IMG/VR virus record: IMGVR_UViG_2859799533_000006
DNA length: 34,130 nucleotides
Direction: 5' to 3' (one strand)
Origin: a virus
Lineage: Duplodnaviria; Heunggongvirae; Uroviricota; Caudoviricetes
In this document: positions 3,042 through 29,492 of the stretch, piece by piece
Position numbering within the stretch: the stretch's first letter is position 1
How the letters are laid out: the number at the start of each line of letters is the position of its first letter
The notes under the pieces: generated by a model
What the model was told of the DNA's origin: nothing
What the model saw: the letters and a program-made list of their open reading frames with translations, nothing else
Databases searched by the model: none
Position numbers and translations under genes: made by a program

Positions 3042-4169
3042 TTATTTGTGACATTGTGGTTGTTGTGCGACAGACATTGCTATTCGGCCCATATCCCAGA
3101 TAAAACCCGCCAGCTCACGTGCAACAGCAACAATTGTAATATTGACATTCTTTCCTTTGGCCTGAAGTTTTCGATACCTCTTACAAAGCCTGAGTTGAGC
3201 ATCCCATGCTCTGTCAATGACGGGGCGGGGTAAATTTTCCTGCCTTTTTTGTATTGCCGGACTGATGCGTGCCGGATGACGGTAACTCCACGCTGCCTCG
3301 ACCAATAGCTTTCTGGCATAGCTGTTTCCGGCTTTGGTAATGCTGCCCTGATGTCTGCTTCCACCCGATGAATATTCTGATGGCGTGATACCAAACCATG
3401 ACATCAGTTGTCGTGGATGTTCAAAACGGGTCAGATCACCCAGTTCAGAAATTAATCCAACCGCAGTAATAAACTGAATCCCTCGCATGGCTTGCAGCGC
3501 CTCTACTACCGGATACAGCCTCCATTCGGTAACGGCCTCCTTCAGGGCGGATTCCAGCCGTTCACATTGTGCCTGCCGGTCTTCTATTGTACGACGGTGT
3601 TCGTCAAAAGCTAATTGTCGCCAGGGACTTTCGAATGAGTATTTGCTGAGCCAGCGTCGGTGTGCAGGGCCCCAATCTGCTCGCCCGACATAATGGACCC
3701 CATGAACCAGAAGAAACGATTTCAGACGTTGCCTTGCATGCCGTAAATCATCGCGGGCAGATGCCCATGCCCGGGCCAAATCCCGGAATGCCTCATCTTC
3801 AATGCCGGGTACGTAGACAGCAGAAAGATCTCCTGCACGCAGTGAACGCACAAGTCTGATGGCATCACGGCGATCGGTTTTAACCCGCTCCCCCGGTTTT
3901 TTCGGGATAAGTGAGGGGGCGCAGACCATGCAGTCAAAACCGGATTTCACCAGCCGACGATAAAGTCCATAACCACAGGGCCCCGCTTCATAAACGATAC
4001 TGACCTGCGATGACTTTGACCTGAGACGTTTACAAAGATTCTGAATATCAGTAGGTGATGTGCCAATTTTACCCATCAGTTCAACAGGTTCTGAATTGAT
4101 AGCATAAGCGACAGTAATCGATTCTTTGTGAACATCTAACCCGACGTACAATGTGTTATTGTTGTTCAT
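3042..4169 (-). CDS. IS110-family transposase/recombinase
   Basis: 375 aa from MNNNNTLYVGLDVHKESITV (IS110-family N-terminal motif) with GGAGG 6 nt upstream of the ATG at 4169; the ORF track extends 16 codons further upstream to 4217. Confidence 0.85.
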   Translation of the reverse strand: MNNNNTLYVGLDVHKESITVAYAINSEPVELMGKIGTSPTDIQNLCKRLRSKSSQVSIVYEAGPCGYGLYRRLVKSGFDCMVCAPSLIPKKPGERVKTDRRDAIRLVRSLRAGDLSAVYVPGIEDEAFRDLARAWASARDDLRHARQRLKSFLLVHGVHYVGRADWGPAHRRWLSKYSFESPWRQLAFDEHRRTIEDRQAQCERLESALKEAVTEWRLYPVVEALQAMRGIQFITAVGLISELGDLTRFEHPRQLMSWFGITPSEYSSGGSRHQGSITKAGNSYARKLLVEAAWSYRHPARISPAIQKRQENLPRPVIDRAWDAQLRLCKRYRKLQAKGKNVNITIVAVARELAGFIWDMGRIAMSVAQQPQCHK

Positions 4170-4384
4170 GCTGGCCTCCGTGGTGGAAATACCGGGGTGT
4201 AGCAACAGCTCACCCATGCGGCTCTGACAACGATGTTAACCCGCGTTAAATATCCCACGTTGGCCAGCATCTGTCTCACGGAAAGTCATACTGCCTTACT
4301 ATCGTATTGATTGATCTGCATCAAATTAACGTAAAAGCAACTTCAGATAATACAAATCAGCAACACTGAATATGGGGAAACATT

Positions 4385-5635: not shown

Positions 5636-6109
5636 CTAGTTAATACACTGAGTGCGGATATATTCCTGCGCCCCTTCCAGTTGCTTCTGCATTGTCATCA
5701 ACCGCTCTCTGAGGGTGAAATAATCCCGTTCAGCGGTGTCTGCCAGTCGGGGGCCGGTTGCATTATCCATTCCGGAGGTGCCGGTGGCTTCACGCACGGT
5801 ACCGGAGCAGGTGGCGTTGATCCGCAGGCGCTTACGACCAGCGGCAACATCAGCACGCAGAGTTTCATTTTCAGCTCTCGCATCGGCTAATTCCCTTGAG
5901 TATCTGGCATCAAGCGCAGCAACATCACGCTGGCGCTGCTGCATGTCAGTAATGGTTGCGTTTGCCAGCTCCAGCTCTCTGGCTTTTTTATCGCGCTGCG
6001 CTTTGTAGGTGATGGCGTTATCACGGTAATGGTCTGTTGCCAGCCACAGCGCACCACAGACCACCAGCAGAATAACGGTAAACGCGGAAAGCATTCGGTT
6101 TATGTTCAC
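5636..6109 (-). CDS. Rz: i-spanin Rz
   Basis: Strong similarity to lambda Rz ([15 protein letters not shown]...[25 protein letters not shown]) with N-terminal TM segment; true start may be the internal Met at 6094. Confidence 0.9.
5698..5883 (-). CDS. Rz1: o-spanin Rz1 lipoprotein, embedded in the +1 frame of Rz
   Basis: [17 protein letters not shown]...[30 protein letters not shown] matches lambda Rz1 (lipobox plus proline-rich region) and lies entirely inside Rz. Confidence 0.85.
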
Positions 6110-6237
6110 CCCAGCAGCCCCGACGAAGACAACATCATCCAGGCCATGGAAAGAAAAAGAGCAACCAGCATTAGTGAAAATGAAATGCCGACAATTACAC
6201 AGAGGATCTTCGCCAGCGTTATGAGTTTGTCTGACAT
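6106..6237 (-). CDS. small single-TM peptide upstream of Rz (speculative)
   Basis: [38 protein letters not shown]; stop overlaps the Rz start (ATGA). Overlaps the alternative ORF 6252..6434 in another frame. Confidence 0.25.
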
Positions 6238-6251
6238 GCTTAATCCTCCCT

Positions 6252-6434
6252 TCACGATTTCAACGCAATGACCAGTTTTGCCAGCCCATACAGCATCGGG
6301 GACACAGCAACACCGACCGCCACCCACTTAATGGCAAAAGCCAGTGCTCTGCTGATGTCATCAGTTACAGGCGCTTTCAGTTCAAGGCCGTTTTTCATGG
6401 TCAACCTCAACAGAATTCGTTTATACTTCGCCAT
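6252..6434 (-). CDS. small membrane protein between endolysin and Rz (speculative)
   Basis: [60 protein letters not shown] with a C-terminal hydrophobic segment. Confidence 0.25.
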
Positions 6435-6590
6435 GTTCTCCCTTGCCTTACTCAAGGTCAGAAACACAAAACCCCGCTTGGTGCCAACAAACGGGGTTTT
6501 TACTTTTATTCACTTACGTTTCGCCAGTTCGCAGGATTTCGTGTTATCCGTCCGCGTGCTCATGCCTTATTTTTCAGCAAAATATTCTGC

Positions 6591-7124
6591 TTATCTGTCG
6601 ATGTCCCAGCACGCCAGCGCACTTTCCTGGTCTCGCCGGGATACCTGACCGTAGCAATTATTTGAGCGGATACGGCAGTCTCTGCCACCGTCCTTAATCC
6701 ACCAGCGAATCGCTTCGCATGCTCCCCTGCGGTCACCAGCATTAATCCGTCTGTAAAACGTCGACGGGAAACACTTACCGGGGCCAATGTTATAGGGACA
6801 AAATGACGCGATACCCGCTTTCTGGGGTTCGGTCAGCGGCACTTTAATATTGCGCTCCACCCATGCCAGCGCCTTATCACGCTCAATGGCGTTGACCTGG
6901 TCGCATTTTTCCTTCGACAACTTCATGCCCGGGACGACAGGTTTACTATCCACCAGAATGGCACCGCGGCAGATGGTCCAGATACCCGCGCCATCACGGT
7001 ATGCCGTGGTGTGGTTACCTTCCTTTTCATCCAGAAACTGGTCGAGGATTTCAGGCGCAGGCGCACCTGCGGCAATCAGCGCCAGAACGGCAGCCGACAG
7101 GCCGTATTTGATTTTGGTGTTCAT
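6591..7124 (-). CDS. R: SAR endolysin (phage lysozyme, T4/P1/phage-21 R type)
   Basis: N-terminal signal-anchor-release domain (LSAAVLALIAAGAPAPE) followed by the catalytic E...D...T motif (EGNHTTAYRDGAGIWTICRG); partnered with a pinholin. Confidence 0.9.
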   Translation of the reverse strand: MNTKIKYGLSAAVLALIAAGAPAPEILDQFLDEKEGNHTTAYRDGAGIWTICRGAILVDSKPVVPGMKLSKEKCDQVNAIERDKALAWVERNIKVPLTEPQKAGIASFCPYNIGPGKCFPSTFYRRINAGDRRGACEAIRWWIKDGGRDCRIRSNNCYGQVSRRDQESALACWDIDR

Positions 7125-7174
7125 GGATATTTATCAGGGTTTATCGATTTCAAATCCCTGGATATGTTAAGTCT

Positions 7175-7519
7175 TCAGGCCAGCGGTGGAGTCTTCAGAG
7201 AACCCGTAATTATTCCCGGTAGTTTTCCTCTGTAGGTTATCAACACATCCTGCGCCTCTAAAATTACGGGGCGCTTTTCCGGCAACGGACCATCCCCTTC
7301 ACATAACCCGGCAGCAACATCCATGAAAAACTGCTTCGCCTGCTTTTTCGCCTCAGCTTCGTAAAACTCCAGCGTGGCATCTTCAGTACGGTCAAGACTA
7401 ATCGCCACATCTGGCAACAACAGTGACGGATACCCACCAATTTCCAGTGCCACAGTAACAGTAATCTTATTCGGGTAATTATTTATCCCTTTAACAACCA
7501 GTTCGTATTTTTTCTTCAT
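7175..7519 (-). CDS. hypothetical protein inserted between holin and endolysin genes
   Basis: 114-aa ORF MKKKYELVVKGINNYPNKITV... with GGAG 10 nt upstream of the ATG, overlapping the holin stop. Confidence 0.55.
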   Translation of the reverse strand: MKKKYELVVKGINNYPNKITVTVALEIGGYPSLLLPDVAISLDRTEDATLEFYEAEAKKQAKQFFMDVAAGLCEGDGPLPEKRPVILEAQDVLITYRGKLPGIITGSLKTPPLA

Positions 7520-7523
7520 CGCT

Positions 7524-7739
7524 TTACTCTCCCCGCGCCGCCTTACGACGGTCCTCTCTGATTTTGAAATACAGGTTAGTCAGATATGTCAGCAGCCCAA
7601 ACAACAGACTCCCCAGCACGCCTATTGCCGCCCACTGAGACGGGGAAACCCTGTCCAGCAACTGCAGGAACCAGTAGCCCGTTCCCACCGCTGACGTGGT
7701 GTATGACACACCTGTTGTGATTTTTTCCATCTGGTACAT
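7524..7739 (-). CDS. S: pinholin (phage 21 S21-like) with dual-start motif
   Basis: [71 protein letters not shown] closely matches phage 21 S; starts at Met1 and Met4 as in the antiholin/holin dual-start arrangement. Confidence 0.9.
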
Positions 7740-7815: not shown

Positions 7816-8061
7816 TTACATCATCATGTCGCTGTCAGGTGTAGGTTCACCGCCATCTGAAGCACTCCCGTCACCCGCGATACCTTCCGGCTCAGGAACC
7901 GCTGCTACGCCCAGCAGCTCATCCAGAATGGCATCCACTTCTGCATCAAGACGCGACTCAAGATTCTGGCGAAGTTTCTGTTTCAGTGCGCTCCGGACTT
8001 CTTCAGAGCGCAGGACTTCCTTCACTGCCTCTGCAGTGACCAGGGATGTGATTTCTGACAT
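7816..8061 (-). CDS. hypothetical acidic protein upstream of the lysis cassette
   Basis: [51 protein letters not shown]... with acidic C-terminus. Confidence 0.45.
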
Positions 8062-8086: not shown

Positions 8087-8269
8087 TTAAGGAGTAACGG
8101 GTTCTTCGGGTTTGCTTCCGGCTGACTGACTGGCGCTGATTTTCTCAGCGGCCCTTTTATCAATCTGCCTGCACCAGAAATCGCGCACAGCCCTGTACCC
8201 ACCCGAAAGAAGATACAGCACACAGACCGCCGTACAGAAGTACAGCATCACCTGATGAATAAATGTCAT
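8087..8269 (-). CDS. small putative membrane protein
   Basis: 60-aa ORF with hydrophobic segment MLYFCTAVCVLYLLSGGY. Confidence 0.3.
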   Translation of the reverse strand: MTFIHQVMLYFCTAVCVLYLLSGGYRAVRDFWCRQIDKRAAEKISASQSAGSKPEEPVTP

Positions 8270-8407: not shown

Positions 8408-10273
8408 TTATGCGGCTGCTCCAGCTTTGTTTGCTTTAACTTCCACCGTATCAATAAGTACAGGGTAGGTTTCTGCACTACCTGTAATATCCGTAATGAC
8501 AAACCTGTTGAGTCCATTAGCAGTATTGGCCCATTTCACCAGGTCAAACGCCTGTCCATCCACACCATCAAGCACCGGAGTAACATTAATGCTGTTACTG
8601 CCCTTAAATTTAAATGCAAGCGTATGCCAGTCATGGTCGAATGCGCCAAACGTGCCAAGTTCTTTTTGTTGATTAACTGTATGATGGTATGCAACATTAA
8701 TACTGGCTTTATCTGTCTGGACAAAGAAAGAACTCAGATGGCCTTCACCACCCTCACCCGGCCATTCCGCTATTCGCCAGTACAAACCAAAGGCATACTT
8801 GTTTCTGGTTGTCTCAAGATTGACGTTTTCGGGGATTTTAAACCGGACAGCAATTTCCCCGCCTTTTTCCAGTAAAAGTTTTGCCTTGTCTGCAGCAATA
8901 TCACAGTACATTGACCAGGATTTCGCGCTGTTATTTTTCTCAATTCGCAGAGCTTTATTGCCGCTGTCATCAACCAGTGTGCGTCTGCCATACATACCGT
9001 CCCAGCCATAAGGTTTCAGCTGATTGTCTGTAGCTTTTTTGGCATCGTAAAAAATTACAGACTCTGAGGTGGTAACCGGCCTGTCTGGAACAACCACCCC
9101 GGCAGTACCATTAACAAACGCAGAAGACTTACCCGCGCAGCTCAGAATCGCCGTTGCCAGACGGTCGGAAATAATCCCACGGCGAGCCCATGAACTGAAA
9201 TGGCTCGCCCTGTCCTGTGACGTCCAGGTGGCTGAGCTGTCACGCCATTTCGAACCGTAATAACCGATACCCGGAATGTCCGGGTCTTCTTCCGGTTTGT
9301 TCGTCGGCACATTCACCCCGTTCTCATCGGTCATGAACGGTACGAAATGGATATTCTTTTCCGTTTTATTTTTATAGCTGCCGTACACCGTCTGGTACGT
9401 GGATTCGTTCTTCTGCTTCCAGAAATACGTCGTGTCCCCGCATATCCAGGGAACACCGCCAGCAGAGCCACCGACGCACTGGCCTGCCATATCCGCCAGG
9501 TCTGCACGGAATTTATCAACCAGCGCACCAAACTGTGCGGCATGATTTGCCGGCGTACCGCCAAAATCAAATTCCCCCTGCATCCACACCACGGCAAACA
9601 GCACATTTTTCGGGTTCTTCTCCAGTGCCGCTTTTGTTCGACCGATAAGGTCCTTATACAGCGGCTTGTCCACACCCCAGCGGGTTGAATTCTCCGAGGC
9701 ACCACTCGCGTCACTGTATGTGCCATCAGCTCCGGTGGTGAACGCTGAACCACCACGACAGCACGGAACCAGCAGAATGCCCGCATTCGCCGGTATAAAC
9801 GGCAGCAGTTTTTTGGCGATATGCAGCCCCTGCCCCACGGTTCCGTACTGCCCCTTTGACAGGTCCGCTTTCGGATGGTTAAGACGGCTCATGTCCTGCA
9901 CATCATGCAGACAATGGTCCGCCGGAATGATGTCGTTATATTTGCATGCTGCACCGCCCGGTGTCACCGTACTGCGACGCGCCAGTTGCTTAATACGCGG
10001 GTCCGGACGGTCATATGTCCCCGGCAGCGGAAGGCCTTCACCATACGACATGCCGTTTGACTGCCCTGCCAGAACCACAACAAAGTAATACTCCGGGTTG
10101 CTGGTGGCGCTGATTACTGCACCTTCTGCTGCAATCGCCTGCATCAGAGTATAAGGGGTTATGGCCACCGGACTACCAAACGGCTGCCAGCCCTCTTTCA
10201 GTTTATGTGTCAGCTTTTCCGCAAGATCTGACGGCGACGCCGCCCTGACAACATCATAGTGTTTAAATGCCAT
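8408..10273 (-). CDS. NanS-p-type sialate O-acetylesterase (prophage-encoded)
   Basis: About 620 aa starting MAFKHYDVVRAASPSDLAEKLTHKLKEGWQPFGSPVAI (DUF1737-like N-terminus) followed by an esterase-type domain (VVLAGQSNGMSYGEG); sits where NanS-p sits downstream of stx in Stx phages. Start could also be the upstream ATG at 10288. Confidence 0.8.
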   Translation of the reverse strand: MAFKHYDVVRAASPSDLAEKLTHKLKEGWQPFGSPVAITPYTLMQAIAAEGAVISATSNPEYYFVVVLAGQSNGMSYGEGLPLPGTYDRPDPRIKQLARRSTVTPGGAACKYNDIIPADHCLHDVQDMSRLNHPKADLSKGQYGTVGQGLHIAKKLLPFIPANAGILLVPCCRGGSAFTTGADGTYSDASGASENSTRWGVDKPLYKDLIGRTKAALEKNPKNVLFAVVWMQGEFDFGGTPANHAAQFGALVDKFRADLADMAGQCVGGSAGGVPWICGDTTYFWKQKNESTYQTVYGSYKNKTEKNIHFVPFMTDENGVNVPTNKPEEDPDIPGIGYYGSKWRDSSATWTSQDRASHFSSWARRGIISDRLATAILSCAGKSSAFVNGTAGVVVPDRPVTTSESVIFYDAKKATDNQLKPYGWDGMYGRRTLVDDSGNKALRIEKNNSAKSWSMYCDIAADKAKLLLEKGGEIAVRFKIPENVNLETTRNKYAFGLYWRIAEWPGEGGEGHLSSFFVQTDKASINVAYHHTVNQQKELGTFGAFDHDWHTLAFKFKGSNSINVTPVLDGVDGQAFDLVKWANTANGLNRFVITDITGSAETYPVLIDTVEVKANKAGAAA

Positions 10274-10533
10274 GGTTCTTTCCACCATCTGAAAAATGAT
10301 TCTTTAAAATACCTGACATGTAATACAGAAAAAACACAAAACCATACCTTAAATAAAAACCTCATCATCAAGCAGATATGCATGGATAAACTACAAGACG
10401 AGATATAAACCACCCTGCATTTAAATAAACAATAAACAACATCAGAAAAATAATTCTGCTCTATGGTTTACATTCAAAAATATCATTTATACTTTTCAGA
10501 ACATCACCAGCAATGCATAAACAAGGAAACCAA

Positions 10534-10869: not shown

Positions 10870-10903
10870 GGAGTTTACTCACATCTGACAAAATCAATAT
10901 AAA

Positions 10904-10925
10904 CAGCCCCTCCGGAGAGGGGCTG
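10904..10925 (-). terminator. rho-independent terminator (minus-strand transcripts)
   Basis: 9-bp GC-rich stem cagcccctc/gaggggctg with loop cgga; on the minus strand it is followed by a U-rich tract. Confidence 0.5.
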
Positions 10926-11158
10926 GAGAGTGGCGCTATGTGCCATTGCATGGTGCCGGGTGCCTCCCGGTGAATTCAGTACCAGCACCTGAATCTGCGA
11001 TTATCCCATATACCTACTCGCTGATTGCCCCTCCGCACAGGGGGATTCACCATGCCAGTTTCTTTTAACAAACTCCCCGCAAACCAGACAACAGTCAACC
11101 GCCTGAATTGTGAGACATTTAAAAAAAAGCCCGCAAAAGCGAGCCAGGGAAAATAAGT

Positions 11159-11235
11159 GTGGCGCGTTCTACTGTATTCGAACCAGTGACCGATTGCTTA
11201 GAAGGCAATTGCTCTGTCCGGCTGAGCTAACAACG
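11159..11235 (-). tRNA. argN: tRNA-Arg (anticodon UCU)
   Basis: Reverse complement gives a cloverleaf with anticodon loop CCTTCTAAG, T-loop TTCGAAT and CCA end; one acceptor-stem and one T-stem mismatch. Confidence 0.6.
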
Positions 11236-11251
11236 CAGGATACAGATAATG

Positions 11252-11326
11252 AACCGCCTTCGGGGACCCGAACTCCGCGCAACCAGCTTCGAAGGCTGGC
11301 GCTCTTTCCTGATGAGCTAATGGCGG
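11252..11326 (-). tRNA. tRNA-Arg-like (anticodon UCG), somewhat degenerate
   Basis: Hand-folded cloverleaf: D-arm gctc/gagc, anticodon stem ccagc/gctgg with loop CTTCGAA, T-loop TTCGGGT; acceptor 6/7 and T-stem 4/5 pairs; A58 replaced by G. Confidence 0.4.
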
Positions 11327-11333
11327 TATGTGA

Positions 11334-11409
11334 TGGTGGCCCTTGCTGGATTTGAACCAGCGACCTGGCGATTATGAGTCGCTCGCTCTCACCACTGAGC
11401 TAAAGGGCC
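11334..11409 (-). tRNA. ileZ: tRNA-Ile2 (anticodon CAU, ileZ-like)
   Basis: Reverse complement GGCCCTTTAGCTCAGTGGTGAGAGCGAGCGACTCATAATCGC...GGTTCAAATCCAGCAAGGGCCACCA closely resembles E. coli tRNA-Ile2; anticodon CAT. Confidence 0.8.
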
Positions 11410-13082: not shown

Positions 13083-13556
13083 CTATCGCGTTACCCTCTT
13101 TAACTGCCGCTCCGCCCATGCCTCTTCAATGTCAAACCGAACCACCAACGTATCGTAAAAGCGTTTCACTGATTTTTTCCACGTATCAAGCGTGATAGCA
13201 CTCGTCACTTTGCATATGGCATTAAATGCCTCCGTTGATGGTAGTCTTTCACAGCCACGACCACCACAACGCTGGCAGTCTCTGATAACAGGCATACCAC
13301 GTTTTACCGACTCTTCACGATGAATGGCGACACCACGCCCACGGCAATCCTTACAGGCGGTGGAAACCTCACCCTTTCCGCCACACTCCGGACAGGCAAC
13401 TTTTACCACCTCCCTGACTTTTTTCCATTCTTCCCAGTAAGACGGATACACGCCTTTTGTGCACTTTGCCCACACTGGTGGCTTACCATCCGGATACTGG
13501 ATCTTGTTTGTAAAAACCTCGCTTTCAATAAATTTTTTCCGTGACAGCAGGGGCAC
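13083..13556 (-). CDS. Q: late-gene antiterminator Q (zinc-finger part); has only a GTG start and is probably the 3' part of a frameshifted longer Q gene
   Basis: CPECGGKG...CKDCRGRG zinc-finger motifs; sits upstream of tR' and the tRNA trio; no ATG start, and overlaps the upstream ORF by 154 nt. Confidence 0.6.
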   Translation of the reverse strand: MPLLSRKKFIESEVFTNKIQYPDGKPPVWAKCTKGVYPSYWEEWKKVREVVKVACPECGGKGEVSTACKDCRGRGVAIHREESVKRGMPVIRDCQRCGGRGCERLPSTEAFNAICKVTSAITLDTWKKSVKRFYDTLVVRFDIEEAWAERQLKRVTR

Positions 13557-20116: not shown

Positions 20117-20280
20117 AGTGACATCCTCATGTGCGAATTTTGAAAACTCACCACATGGGACGCCAATCACAGAGGTGGTGAGACGTACAGGGTTGGCGTA
20201 ACCGGTCGCACATGACCCCGGCGCATCTTTCGATGCCCCTGCACGCCCCACCATAATTTGGATGTGAGGAAACGTGCGCA

Positions 20281-20303
20281 AAAAAACCGCTGAAGCGCGG
20301 TTA
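20281..20303 (-). terminator. putative rho-independent terminator upstream of rha (minus strand)
   Basis: Minus-strand hairpin aaccgcg...cgcggtt followed by T7. Confidence 0.45.
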
Positions 20304-20521
20304 TGCGCATGTGCGAATTTCAGGACGCCAATCCCGGCACCCGCTTTATAAGGTGCGGAGACAGTGTAACGTCCCGAAATTGCAGAATCAATATTTGGTC
20401 TTGAAATGATCATATAGCTGCTGATATCTTTAGAACTGTTCTTGGATGTTTCGGAGCCGTTTTATGCGAAACAGCTCCCCGTTATTGATGTTGAGTGAGC
20501 CGGGTTACTCCCGGCTTTTTT

Positions 20522-23756: not shown

Positions 23757-23798
23757 TGAACCGCCCCGGGTTTCCTGGAGAGTGTTTTATCTGTGAAC

Positions 23799-24689
23799 TC
23801 AGGCTGCCAGATCATCGTTTCCGATGGAAGCATAATAAGCTTTTTCTGCTTCTGCCGGAGGAGTATGGCCCAGCCTTTCCAGCAATCGTCGATTGTTATA
23901 CCAGTCCACCCACGTGAGTGTGGCCAGTTCCACTTCTGCACGGTTTTTCCAGCTCTTACGGTGTATTACCTCCGCTTTGTAAAGACCATTGATGCTCTCC
24001 GCCATCGCGTTGTCATACGAGTCGCCTGTACTTCCTGTTGATGCCAGTAATCCGGCTTCCTTAAGCCGCTGTGTGTAGGCCAGCGATACATACTGAGAAC
24101 CTTTATCACTGTGATGGACCGTGCCGGACGGTCGACGGGCCCATAACGCCTGCTCCAGAGCATCCAGCACGAATGTCGTTTCCATGGACGATGAGACCCG
24201 CCACCCCACGATGTATCCGGCAAACACATCAATGATGAACGCCACATAGACGAAGCCCTGCCATGTGCTGACGTAAGTAAAATCAGCCACCCACAGCTGG
24301 TCAGGTCGTTCTGCCACGAACTGACGGTTTACGCGGTCGCCTGCGGCAACGGCTTTCCGGCTGATGGTCGTACGGACCTTTTTACCCCGGAGAACACCGG
24401 CAAGTCCCATAACCGCCATGAGACGTGCCACAGTGCATCTGGCCACTCTGATACCTTCCCGTAACAACTGACGCCAGACTTTACGCACACCGTATACCTG
24501 ATGATTCCCATCGTATACGCGCAGTATCTCTTTCTTCAGCCAGTCATCGCGCTGCGCACGGGCACTGCGTTTATCAGGATGATGTCGCTGTTGCTGACAG
24601 TGGTAATACGTTGACGGGGCAATATGCAGTTCACTGCATACCGGTCCGACCCCGTACAGCTTACGCAGCTTATCCAGCAGTGGCATCAC
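23799..24689 (-). CDS. IS629 transposase OrfB (DDE integrase domain)
   Basis: 296-aa ORF with the IS3-family catalytic region; overlaps orfA in the arrangement for a -1 frameshift fusion. Confidence 0.9.
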
Positions 24690-25012
24690 TTTTTCCAGAG
24701 GCGGTCGAACTCCGCCTTCGCAAAATAAGCGGAAGCCTGGCGAAGGATATCGTTACTGCGGCGCAGTTCACGATTTTCACGCTCCAGCTCTTTCAGACGC
24801 TGACGTTCAGCGGTGGTGAGCCCTCCATCACCGCCCCCGGTATCCCGCTCATGCTGGCGAACCCAGACACGCAGAGTCTCCGGCGTACAGCCAATCTTTG
24901 GAGCAATGGAACAAATTGTCGCCCATTGTGAGTCATATTCGCCCTGACTTTCCAGAACCATACGGACTGCCCGTTGACGGACTTCGGGGGAAAAACGAGT
25001 ATTTTTAGTCAT
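24686..25012 (-). CDS. IS629 transposase OrfA
   Basis: 108-aa HTH/leucine-zipper protein [22 protein letters not shown]... Confidence 0.9.
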
Positions 25013-25066
25013 CCTGTTTACCTCTTTCTCAGGAAGTTTAGTCTCCAGGATTCCCGGGGCGGTTCA

Positions 25067-25667
25067 AACCATTATCCGTCAGCCACTCCACTGGAGACGA
25101 CGGAAGATCGTTGCCGAAGCGGCGTTCCACCGCTCCCAGCATGACGTCCTGTACTGTTTCACTGTTGAAGCCGCCGGTAGTCACCGCCCAGTGCAGTGCC
25201 TCACGATCACAGCAGTCCAGCGCGAACGTGACACGCAGTCTCTCTCCGTTATCACAGCAGAACTCGAACCCGTCAGAGCACCATCGCTGATTGCTTTCTT
25301 TCACGGCCACTCTGCCTGTATGTGCCCGTTTCGATGGCGGTACAGCAGGTTTTCGCTCAAGCAACAGCGCATTCTGGCGCATGATCCGGTAAACACGTTT
25401 GGCATTGATCGCAGGCATACCATCAAGTTCTGCCTGTCTGCGAAGCAGCGCCCATACCCGACGATAACCATACGTGGGCAGCTCTCCGATAACATGGTGT
25501 ATACGGAGAAGCACATCCGTATCATCAGTGTGACGACTGCGGCGGCCATCCATCCAGTCATCGGTTCGTCTGAGAATGACGTGCAACTGCGCACGCGACA
25601 CCCGGAGACAACGGCTGACTAAGCTTACTCCCCATCCCCGGGCAATAAGGGCGCGTGCGCTATCCAC
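25067..25667 (-). pseudogene. insD: IS2 transposase InsD, 5' fragment
   Basis: ORF 25038..25667 ([21 protein letters not shown]...) runs into the IS629 end at 25066. Confidence 0.85.
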
Positions 25668-27801: not shown

Positions 27802-28242
27802 CTATCAGGCACTGCGCGAGGCGGCGGAACAGGCAACGCAAGATGAATGGGTAGCATATATTTTGCCGGGTCATAACGGCATTTATCCTGCGCGCACGTC
27901 TGAGGGTAGGCATTGCGGATACTTTATTGACTGGCCTGGCGTCTGTCAGGGGCGGGAGAGCATCAGCATCAGAACCTACGCAGTGAATTGCAATGACGCA
28001 TGGCTAAACACCGAAGGTGATGACATCTCCGGCTCATACGTTAAGTACAAAGACCATCAGGAAGTGGTTGCCGCTCTTGAAGCCAAGTGCGCGGCGCTGG
28101 CAGCGGAGAATGCGGGAATAAAGTCTGCAATTCCAGAATCACGGGATATTGAGGATGACAATGACAATATGGATGACGTATCTCTCGCGGAAGACTTCGG
28201 GTTCAATCATGCAATAGAACGGATGAGGAGACAGATTGAACC
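27788..28242 (+). pseudogene. Ead/Ea22-like protein, C-terminus disrupted by IS629 insertion two codons before the native stop
   Basis: MSKIDYQALREAAEQATQDEWVAY... is the Ead/Ea22-like N-terminal signature; reading across the 3-bp target duplication gives ...RMRRQID-T-stop. Confidence 0.65.
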
Positions 28243-28278
28243 GCCCCGGGTTTCCTGGAGAGTGTTTTATCTGTGAAC

Positions 28279-29169
28279 TCAGGCTGCCAGATCATCGTTT
28301 CCGATGGAAGCATAATAAGCTTTTTCTGCTTCTGCCGGAGGAGTATGGCCCAGCCTTTCCAGCAATCGTCGATTGTTATACCAGTCCACCCACGTGAGTG
28401 TGGCCAGTTCCACTTCTGCACAGTTTTTCCAGCTCTTACGGTGTATTACCTCCGCTTTGTAAAGACCATTGATGCTCTCCGCCATCGCGTTGTCATACGA
28501 GTCGCCTGTACTTCCTGTTGATGCCAGTAATCCGGCTTCCTTAAGCCGCTGTGTGTAGGCCAGCGATACATACTGAGAACCTTTATCACTGTGATGGACC
28601 GTGCCGGACGGTCGACGGGCCCATAACGCCTGCTCCAGAGCATCCAGCACGAATGTCGTTTCCATGGACGATGAGACCCGCCACCCCACGATGTATCCGG
28701 CAAACACATCAATGATGAACGCCACATAGACGAAGCCCTGCCATGTGCTGACGTAAGTAAAATCAGCCACCCACAGCTGGTCAGGTCGTTCTGCCACGAA
28801 CTGACGGTTTACGCGGTCGCCTGCGGCAACGGCTTTCCGGCTGATGGTCGTACGGACCTTTTTACCCCGGAGAACACCGGCAAGTCCCATAACCGCCATG
28901 AGACGTGCCACAGTGCATCTGGCCACTCTGATACCTTCCCGTAACAACTGACGCCAGACTTTACGCACACCGTATACCTGATGATTCCCATCGTATACGC
29001 GCAGTATCTCTTTCTTCAGCCAGTCATCGCGCTGCGCACGGGCACTGCGTTTATCAGGATGATGTCGCTGTTGCTGACAGTGGTAATACGTTGACGGGGC
29101 AATATGCAGTTCACTGCATACCGGTCCGACCCCGTACAGCTTACGCAGCTTATCCAGCAGTGGCATCAC
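28279..29169 (-). CDS. IS629 transposase OrfB
   Basis: Identical to the copy 1 OrfB except one residue (Cys for Arg in SWKNCAEVE). Confidence 0.9.
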
Positions 29170-29492
29170 TTTTTCCAGAGGCGGTCGAACTCCGCCTTCG
29201 CAAAATAAGCGGAAGCCTGGCGAAGGATATCGTTACTGCGGCGCAGTTCACGATTTTCACGCTCCAGCTCTTTCAGACGCTGACGTTCAGCGGTGGTGAG
29301 CCCTCCATCACCGCCCCCGGTATCCCGCTCATGCTGGCGAACCCAGACACGCAGAGTCTCCGGCGTACAGCCAATCTTTGGAGCAATGGAACAAATTGTC
29401 GCCCATTGTGAGTCATATTCGCCCTGACTTTCCAGAACCATACGGACTGCCCGTTGACGGACTTCGGGGGAAAAACGAGTATTTTTAGTCAT
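29166..29492 (-). CDS. IS629 transposase OrfA
   Basis: Identical to copy 1 OrfA. Confidence 0.9.

Follow-up and report, generated by a model that had tools for sequence, protein, structure and literature searches.

The window, by which we mean the whole 34,130-nucleotide stretch of DNA analyzed here, carries its lysis genes on the minus strand, and among them lies a 114-codon open reading frame (ORF; 7175..7519, ATG start, TGA stop). On one side of this ORF is the gene for a 71-residue S21-type class II pinholin, S (7524-7739, minus), the product of which matches PF04971, 'Bacteriophage P21 holin S' (E 9e-33), as well as phrog_9876 and phrog_20, annotated as holin; the dual start Met1/Met4 (MYQM) can be read from its translation. 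On the other side is R (6591-7124, minus), which encodes a 177-residue SAR-type endolysin of the lysozyme family (PF00959, E 2.8e-24; phrog_7, annotated as endolysin) with the Gly/Ala-rich N-terminus and E-x8-D-x5-T triad of SAR endolysins, again as read from the translation. A terminator-like hairpin with a 13-bp stem followed by a T run lies directly 3′ of R (6468-6500, minus), and two small single-transmembrane (TM) ORFs of 60 residues (6252-6434, minus; phrog_1115) and 44 residues (6106-6240, minus; phrog_4906) precede the i-spanin gene Rz (5636-6109, minus; PF03245, E 7e-50), within which the o-spanin gene Rz1 is embedded (5698-5883, minus; PF06085, E 1.5e-19). Upstream of the holin gene are two further small ORFs, DUF826 (7816-8061, minus; PF05696, E 3e-44) and, upstream of that, DUF1378 (8087-8269, minus; PF07125, E 1e-35), giving a minus-strand transcription order of DUF1378, DUF826, S21 holin, the 114-codon ORF, R, the two single-TM ORFs and Rz/Rz1. 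A P21-family class II holin, a SAR-like lysozyme and Rz with an embedded Rz1 together mark this as an S21-type pinholin/SAR-endolysin cassette.

The first-pass annotation had placed a 114-residue ORF between the pinholin and the SAR endolysin as a gene additional to the archetypal S-R-Rz order. We confirm the position of the ORF, and S21-type cassettes in which S directly abuts R do exist, in line with the reading as an extra gene; the orientation requires correction, as all of the lysis genes are on the minus strand. The length of the ORF is by itself unremarkable, since the window contains 53 ORFs of at least 110 residues. We regard it as a real gene because its product matches DUF1327 (153 bits), because the N-terminal module of the family (module A, below) has a dN/dS of 0.25, and because the K-12 homologue has been produced recombinantly (PMC13232886).

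A profile search, suggested in the first-pass annotation, places the ORF in an annotated family, DUF1327/YdfR (PF07041; E 2.4e-45, 153.1 bits against a cutoff of 25, covering model positions 1-92 of 93), with a further match to phrog_406 (E 4e-64) and none to any NCBIfam model. The family core residues YEL.VKG ... R.E...LEFYEA are present in the window protein and in K-12 YdfR, and the invariant columns of the alignment are Y5, L7, V9, K10, G11, K18, R44, E46 and L50-E54. The gene also occupies the position characteristic of the family, directly downstream of a PF04971 holin gene and upstream of a lysozyme gene, so that sequence and synteny agree throughout, and on this basis we are nearly certain that the ORF belongs to YdfR/DUF1327. 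The exact 114-residue protein is found on at least 999 public contigs, and the RefSeq label for these proteins is "YdfR family protein".

The rarity implied by the first-pass annotation is not borne out: the same slot is occupied in K-12 Qin, H-19B, Stx2a_WGPS2, mEp460 and Evi, and E. coli prophages show the same S-YdfR-R arrangement. The members in mEp460 and Evi are only 41-57% identical and yet start 4 nt past the holin stop, before R. In the Qin cryptic prophage of K-12, YdfR (b1555, P76160) belongs to the same Pfam family, PF07041, and is encoded in the order essQ (S21-type holin)-ydfR-rrrQ (lysozyme)-rzpQ/rzoQ, with ydfR 4 nt past the holin stop as in the window. The two proteins are 47% identical over residues 1-74 and differ at the C-terminus, where the 103-residue K-12 protein has a helical tail and the window protein a conserved segment (module B, below); moreover, K-12 ydfR overlaps the start of rrrQ, whereas the window has a 50-nt spacer lacking a Shine-Dalgarno (SD) sequence before R. 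Phage H-19B has an unannotated ORF between S and R (AF034975, 16464-16805) the product of which is 97% identical to the window protein, and a 97% identical 'YdfR family protein' is encoded at the same place in Stx2a_WGPS2, BP-4795 and dozens of Stx1a- and Stx2c-converting phages. The window shares with the H-19B/Stx2a_WGPS2-type phages the gene order esterase, DUF1378, DUF826, S, YdfR, R and then Rz, but they are stx carriers and frequently have Ant as the gene separating R from Rz, whereas the window has no stx and has the two small TM ORFs there. Since this gene, its family and the S-YdfR-R arrangement can all be found in the databases and in the K-12 annotation, they are already known, and the window gene is an ordinary, previously annotated member of the YdfR family. 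The ORF is thus widespread between S and R in related phages, the finding that the first-pass annotation had named as one that would refute its reading if joined to a known function; YdfR is not known to act in lysis.

The S-ydfR junction reads, on the minus strand, GCG CGG GGA GAG TAA agcg ATG, which places the ydfR start codon 4 nt past the holin stop. The first-pass annotation had given the ORF its own ribosome-binding site overlapping the holin stop; the strong site is there, with the SD sequence GGGGAGAG (7534-7527, minus; duplex −8.5 kcal/mol), and it lies within the final two sense codons of S, immediately before the stop rather than across it. R, by contrast, follows a 50-nt AU-rich leader without an SD (7125..7174, minus; duplex +0.6 kcal/mol), the 3′ part of which (CCTGATAAATATCC) recurs in most DUF1327-occupied cassettes. 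A comparison of R upstream regions across loci (L005-L084) finds an SD-less, AU-rich leader before R in all slot-occupied cassettes examined, the commonest one in occupied cassettes being ..CCTGATAAATATCCATG. The holin-terminal SD GGGGAGAG serves R when the slot is empty and the slot gene when it is occupied, and the SD:anti-SD energies are accordingly −8.5 kcal/mol for ydfR, −8.5 kcal/mol for R in the direct cassettes and +0.6 kcal/mol for R in the window. Because occupation of the slot moves R off the holin-terminal SD and onto an SD-less leader, endolysin translation should fall, and we suggest that slot occupancy may lower translation of R in cis. A candidate hairpin in the 50-nt leader was dropped, as it is no better than in shuffled sequence (z 0.20).

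A crude consensus scan of the minus strand between 5400 and 8500 finds no sigma-70-like promoter for ydfR or R, and the gaps on either side of ydfR are free of terminator-like hairpins. From S to R only one such hairpin is seen, a weak 6-bp stem within the coding sequence of ydfR (7439-7424); of the two strongest, one is 5′ of S and the other 3′ of R. With neither a promoter nor a terminator of its own, ydfR would be part of the late lysis transcript; co-expression at lysis, as proposed in the first-pass annotation, is the natural reading of the 4-nt spacing, the strong SD and the lack of a promoter-like site of its own. Classical morons bring their own transcription signals, and strict moron status was ruled out for ydfR on the same crude consensus scan, which shows no promoter of its own and no flanking terminator.

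How often the slot is occupied was surveyed in several collections. Public phage records include 434 that encode an S21-type holin and 101 that encode a DUF1327 protein. An IMG/VR set of 80 loci with a holin at least 97% identical to that of the window contains 71 with both S and R; these cassette loci are not independent samples, so that the fractions are descriptive only. DUF1327 occupies the slot in 48 of the 71, and its ATG lies 4 nt past the holin stop in all except two of these; in 12 of the 71 a slot of 600-1100 nt lacks DUF1327, and in 10-11 it is empty, S abutting R with a holin 99-100% identical. The survey of S21-type cassettes proposed in the first-pass annotation therefore recovers the same insert in many close relatives, with a slot that is otherwise varied or empty. 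Outside this set, Stx2a_F723, phage cdtI and a Klebsiella phage have S21 cassettes free of an insert. The S-R junction is thus a variable slot that holds DUF1327, holds other cargo or is empty. No co-variation signal is seen between YdfR alleles and holin or endolysin alleles, as the holin stays 97-100% identical whatever the slot holds.

DNA matching the ORF is present in 3159 of 5426 complete E. coli genomes, in 1258 of them over at least 80% of the ORF and at up to 8 places per genome. The family is small (51 clusters at 50% identity in a set of 1.84 billion representative sequences, and 274 clusters at 90% identity), and a one-genome-per-species collection contains DUF1327 only in Escherichia coli, E. 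ruysiae, E. albertii, Shigella and two contigs from metagenome-assembled genomes (MAGs). These two contigs, one in a Veillonella parvula MAG (L089) and one in a Bacillota MAG (L091), encode proteins 46-47% identical to the query over residues 1-74, the same value as for L088, L090 and L092 from E. coli, E. ruysiae and Shigella, and are probably Escherichia contamination of the bins. The YdfR family appears to be confined to Escherichia and Shigella.

Several further observations concern the contents of the slot. About 12 same-holin cassettes (L014, L019, L020, L037, L040, L064, L075, L082 and others) have in place of DUF1327 a 185-residue protein with a coiled-coil segment followed by a C-terminal domain of ≈120 residues (phrog_36381 and phrog_26186), and both of these modules are also found fused behind DUF1327 in forms of 296 residues. 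An opposite-strand ORF apparently lies between the DUF1327 gene and R in phage Evi (L093, 2744-3040, annotated as hypothetical), and a possible second one was glimpsed in the alignment in L007, at ≈3750-4050. Gene calls of 173-187 residues join holin (PF04971) and DUF1327 in a single frame (P0010, P0067, P0085 and P0089, with 13 sequences in P0067); either artefacts (a frameshift, a sequencing error) or genuine fusions of holin and YdfR could account for them.

Alignment of the slot genes resolves them into four modules. Module A (residues 1-72; 7304..7519, minus) is the DUF1327 core, modeled as three β-strands and a long helix, and by alignment it appears to match the K-12 YdfR region with reported binding to RNase E 1-597. 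Module B (residues 73-114; 7178..7303, minus), with the consensus PEKRPxILEAQxVxITYxGKLPGxITGSLKTPP, is strongly conserved and predicted to be disordered. Module C, the coiled-coil segment, and module D, the C-terminal domain of ≈120 residues, are found in other slot genes and are absent from the window. The modules combine as A+B in 114-116 residues, which is the form of the window and is found on both deep A alleles; as A+B+C′ in 176-183 residues (phrog_2091); as A+B+C+D in 296-297 residues (phrog_1085); as C+D alone in 185 residues; and as C+B, with module B on a different N-terminus (P0151). Module A is also joined to other tails in proteins of 103-104 residues, the K-12 type, and in one locus (L005) a C+D gene is followed by a separate 75-residue gene of module A only. 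Every PHROG among the slot modules is annotated as function unknown.

The two deep A alleles (KKKYELVV... versus TQNYELIV...) differ with dN 0.43 and dS 1.74 (dN/dS 0.25), whereas module B is near-identical at the DNA level between these divergent alleles (dS 0.05-0.2), and this combination of deep A alleles with near-identical module B DNA is a signature of mosaic recombination. Among close alleles, pairwise dN/dS is mostly 0.4-0.9, on small counts. Variants of 169-196 residues with an internal tandem duplication within module A (P0001 and P0002) are further evidence of recombinational instability in ydfR.

DNA alignment of the window with a 176-residue form (L007) and a 296-residue form (L006) reveals an apparent deletion junction at 7175..7190 (minus). 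L007 shares modules A and B with the window almost base for base, and the long forms (phrog_2091, phrog_1085) run on into the coiled-coil C and the ≈120-residue D, neither of which the window has. The window follows L007 up to ..GAAGAC(T/G)CCACC and then jumps ≈470 bp to ..CCCACCACTGGCGGGCTGAAGACTTAACATATCC; beyond ..AAGACTCCACC, the next bases of the window match a segment found ≈470 bp later in the 176-residue form, and this yields the ..TPPLA end of the protein. Given the match up to the junction and the jump that follows, the simplest reading is that of a deletion derivative, and the 114-residue form looks like the product of a ≈470-bp microhomology-mediated deletion from longer mosaic forms in which A and B were kept.

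The window protein is predicted to be soluble; it has a mildly acidic computed pI of 5.5 and lacks any hydrophobic stretch (maximum 19-residue Kyte-Doolittle mean 1.18), and these properties point to a cytoplasmic location. An AlphaFold2 model built on a 27-sequence alignment gives residues 1-73 as three strands and a long helix (β-β-β-α) with pLDDT 72-90, and the tail, residues 73-114, with pLDDT below 50 despite its strong sequence conservation. The N-terminal fold recurs in a single-sequence model of the long form; the model of the 287-residue long form P0121, made without an alignment, has pLDDT 48. No solved structure in the PDB matches by sequence, with either the single protein or the profile, and Foldseek finds nothing significant in the PDB or BFVD; candidate comparisons for the arrangement are the dsRBD and HicB-like β-β-β-α RNA-binding folds. 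Two classes were ruled out: a known defence protein, as none of the 5027 defence models of PADLOC-DB 2.0 matches at E ≤ 0.1, and a membrane-acting antiholin or releasin (RI, Mu releasin, LysA-type), as there is no TM or signal/SAR segment.

The functional data found come from a single study, on K-12 YdfR (RNA Biol 2026; PMC13232886). There, a two-hybrid screen baited with RNase G yielded a YdfR 1-72 fragment that interacts preferentially with the N-terminal, catalytic half of RNase E; for the full-length protein, Rne1-597 was the sole partner to give a two-hybrid signal (PMC13232886). Strep-YdfR co-purified Rne1-598 and also a DNase-resistant nucleic acid, which the authors caution could be RNA carried by a contaminating protein, and YdfR overproduction changed few transcripts and left growth unaffected (PMC13232886). 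The 47% identity between the window and K-12 proteins spans the region reported to bind RNase E (residues 1-74). In the literature, a search for 'ydfR' finds no lysis-related study, and 'DUF1327' turns up in a single paper, in passing. An envelope-integrity link is cited for ydfR (ref. 79 of PMC13232886); ydfR does not appear in the main text of PMC3879167, and an insertion in ydfR that drives the downstream lysozyme gene rrrQ could be the source of such a phenotype.

Our preferred reading, held tentatively and at somewhat less than even confidence, is that the window YdfR is a late-expressed cytoplasmic accessory factor that binds RNase E and/or RNA. As judged from the gene geometry, ydfR would be transcribed on the late transcript together with the lysis genes, with translation starting from the strong holin-terminal SD, yielding a small cytoplasmic accessory protein of Escherichia/Shigella lambdoid prophages that is encoded in the S-R slot. 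By analogy with the homologue, its N-terminal β-β-β-α domain would bind host RNase E at the catalytic half of that enzyme and/or bind RNA, making YdfR a late-expressed modulator of RNA turnover and not a membrane-acting lysis protein; the 114-residue form would be a two-module (A+B) derivative of the longer mosaics, and occupancy of the slot would shift R onto the SD-less leader, with less endolysin translated. Comparison shows YdfR to be dispensable for lysis as such, since cassettes with near-identical S and R lack ydfR. Several points count against the RNase E reading: two-hybrid screens yield false positives, the data all come from the K-12 homologue, a role at RNase E alone leaves the strict tie of the gene to the S-R junction unexplained, and the frequent truncated forms are also compatible with weak constraint on ydfR.

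Other readings give more weight to the position of the gene. The mycobacteriophage Ms6 Gp1 is a small cytoplasmic protein, encoded beside a Sec-exported endolysin, that assists endolysin delivery. YdfR, small, acidic, cytoplasmic and encoded directly upstream of a Sec-dependent endolysin, could by the same logic be a chaperone-like helper that keeps nascent R export-competent or limits its premature release, but the matches that would favour it rank no higher than many unrelated folds, near-identical R genes function in YdfR-free cassettes, and the long-form slots put several hundred bases, and sometimes an opposite-strand ORF, between YdfR and R, so we consider such a role highly improbable. 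T4 RIII, a cytoplasmic antiholin cofactor, is the model for an alternative in which YdfR regulates pinholin timing, binding the short cytoplasmic tail, which is basic, or the N-terminus of S21 to delay or sharpen triggering and being made in a fixed ratio with S21 through translational coupling. The strict linkage to PF04971 holins in all cases examined, including members only 41-57% identical, the stop-4 nt-ATG geometry with its shared SD, and the acidic pI of YdfR (5.5) set against the basic pI of the holin tail (10.3) would all be accounted for. We nonetheless judge a timing regulator unlikely: 100% identical holins are paired with A alleles ≈50% divergent, with unrelated C+D cargo or with nothing, and so give no sign of co-adaptation; no antiholin proved homologous to YdfR or significantly similar to it in structure; and the sole experimental data point to RNase E and RNA (PMC13232886).

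The polymorphism of the slot invites two further readings that place less weight on lysis. If the S-R junction were simply a tolerated recombination site, its contents could be exchangeable cargo unrelated to lysis, with an anti-defence, host-takeover or exclusion function, as would fit the presence/absence polymorphism, the alternative 185-residue C+D proteins, the shuffling of modules A to D into several different combinations and orders, and the very narrow host range, Escherichia and Shigella only. Against this, the only feature between S and R resembling a transcription signal is the weak intragenic hairpin at 7439-7424, there being no promoter-like site of the gene's own, and none of the 5027 defence-system models matches; we regard cargo as rather unlikely in a form separate from our preferred reading, with which it overlaps in that an RNase E binder would itself be a host-takeover function. 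A decaying remnant, without a function of its own and kept for the translation signals and spacing of the cassette, is suggested by the resemblance of the 114-residue form to a ≈470-bp deletion derivative of longer forms, by the many truncated, duplicated or fused variants, by the pairwise dN/dS of 0.4-0.9 among close alleles, and by a host prophage riddled with IS elements. This we find improbable, given that an identical 114-residue protein occurs on at least 999 contigs, that forms of 114-116 residues exist on both deep A alleles, that module A retains a dN/dS of 0.25 at a dS of 1.7 and module B a nearly invariant protein sequence, and that the K-12 protein is stable and binds partners (PMC13232886).

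The RNase E/RNA reading can be extended to the slot as a whole, in a form that we put forward only as a speculation and consider doubtful: the S-R junction would be a dedicated recombination-prone slot that combines an RNase E-docking N-terminal domain, variable outputs in modules B, C and D, and lowered translation of the SAR endolysin. If true, this would add a previously unrecognised post-transcriptional layer over late expression, lysis and, in Stx phages, toxin release.

T4 Srd, T7 gp0.7 and phiKZ Dip are phage products that bind host RNase E and reshape RNA decay during infection. They would work like YdfR if the RNase E lead is right, but are products of early or middle genes, whereas YdfR is encoded in a late lysis cassette, and no sequence or structural relationship to these three proteins was found. 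Mu releasin acts at the membrane, unlike YdfR, which has no TM segment. Like YdfR, both T4 RIII and Mu gp25 releasin, as accessory lysis regulators, are products of non-canonical extra genes in or next to a lysis cassette, and the Mu gene also accompanies a SAR endolysin (PMC9239132); neither has homology to YdfR.

These findings bear on a cassette that releases phage and, in Stx1 and Stx2c phages, Shiga toxin, and on an ORF with DNA matches in over half of the complete E. coli genomes. If YdfR acts late on RNase E or RNA, or if the slot tunes endolysin translation, the pinholin/SAR-endolysin pathway would gain a new regulator, and with it a simple genetic handle in the form of slots that are empty, A+B or long. 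To what was already annotated, the present analysis adds a census of the slot, its modular mosaic, a probable origin of the 114-residue form by deletion, and the displacement of the SD.

The surrounding gene content is that of an stx-less lambdoid prophage of the E. coli type, as judged from the sequence. The Q antiterminator gene (13083-13556) is followed in transcription order by three tRNA genes (Met/Ile-like CAT, Arg TCG and Arg TCT; 11160-11409, minus), an STnc100 sRNA match (10895-11084, minus), the gene for a 626-residue NanS-p-like SASA esterase with the domain order DUF1737-SASA-DUF6645 (8408-10288, minus), and the lysis cassette. The layout between 8408 and 11409 is Stx-phage-like, but no stx gene is seen, and the gap between STnc100 and the esterase gene is ≈600 bp. 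A second variable slot lies between R and Rz (6106-6434, minus), holding here the phrog_1115 and phrog_4906 ORFs, both with strong SDs, and in Stx phages the Ant antirepressor gene; the E. coli counterpart of the phrog_1115 ORF is annotated as hypothetical. Distal to Rz, where related prophages have terminase genes, are an IS66-family transposase gene (1158-2750, plus) and an IS110-family transposase gene (3042-4217, minus), and the prophage is probably defective. Two identical IS3-family copies are found 4480 bp apart (23757-24056 and 28237-28536), with rve ORFs at 23799-24689 and 28279-29169 and ALIL matches at 24615-24731 and 29095-29211; a third, partial rve ORF lies at 25038-25667, Ead/Ea22-like genes are found between and after the copies, and the pair may form a composite arrangement. 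C4 antisense RNA (20171-20258) and the Hfq-binding sRNA isrK (20280-20356) have adjoining Rfam matches on the minus strand, at a site that in a related prophage lies near Rha-type regulator genes.
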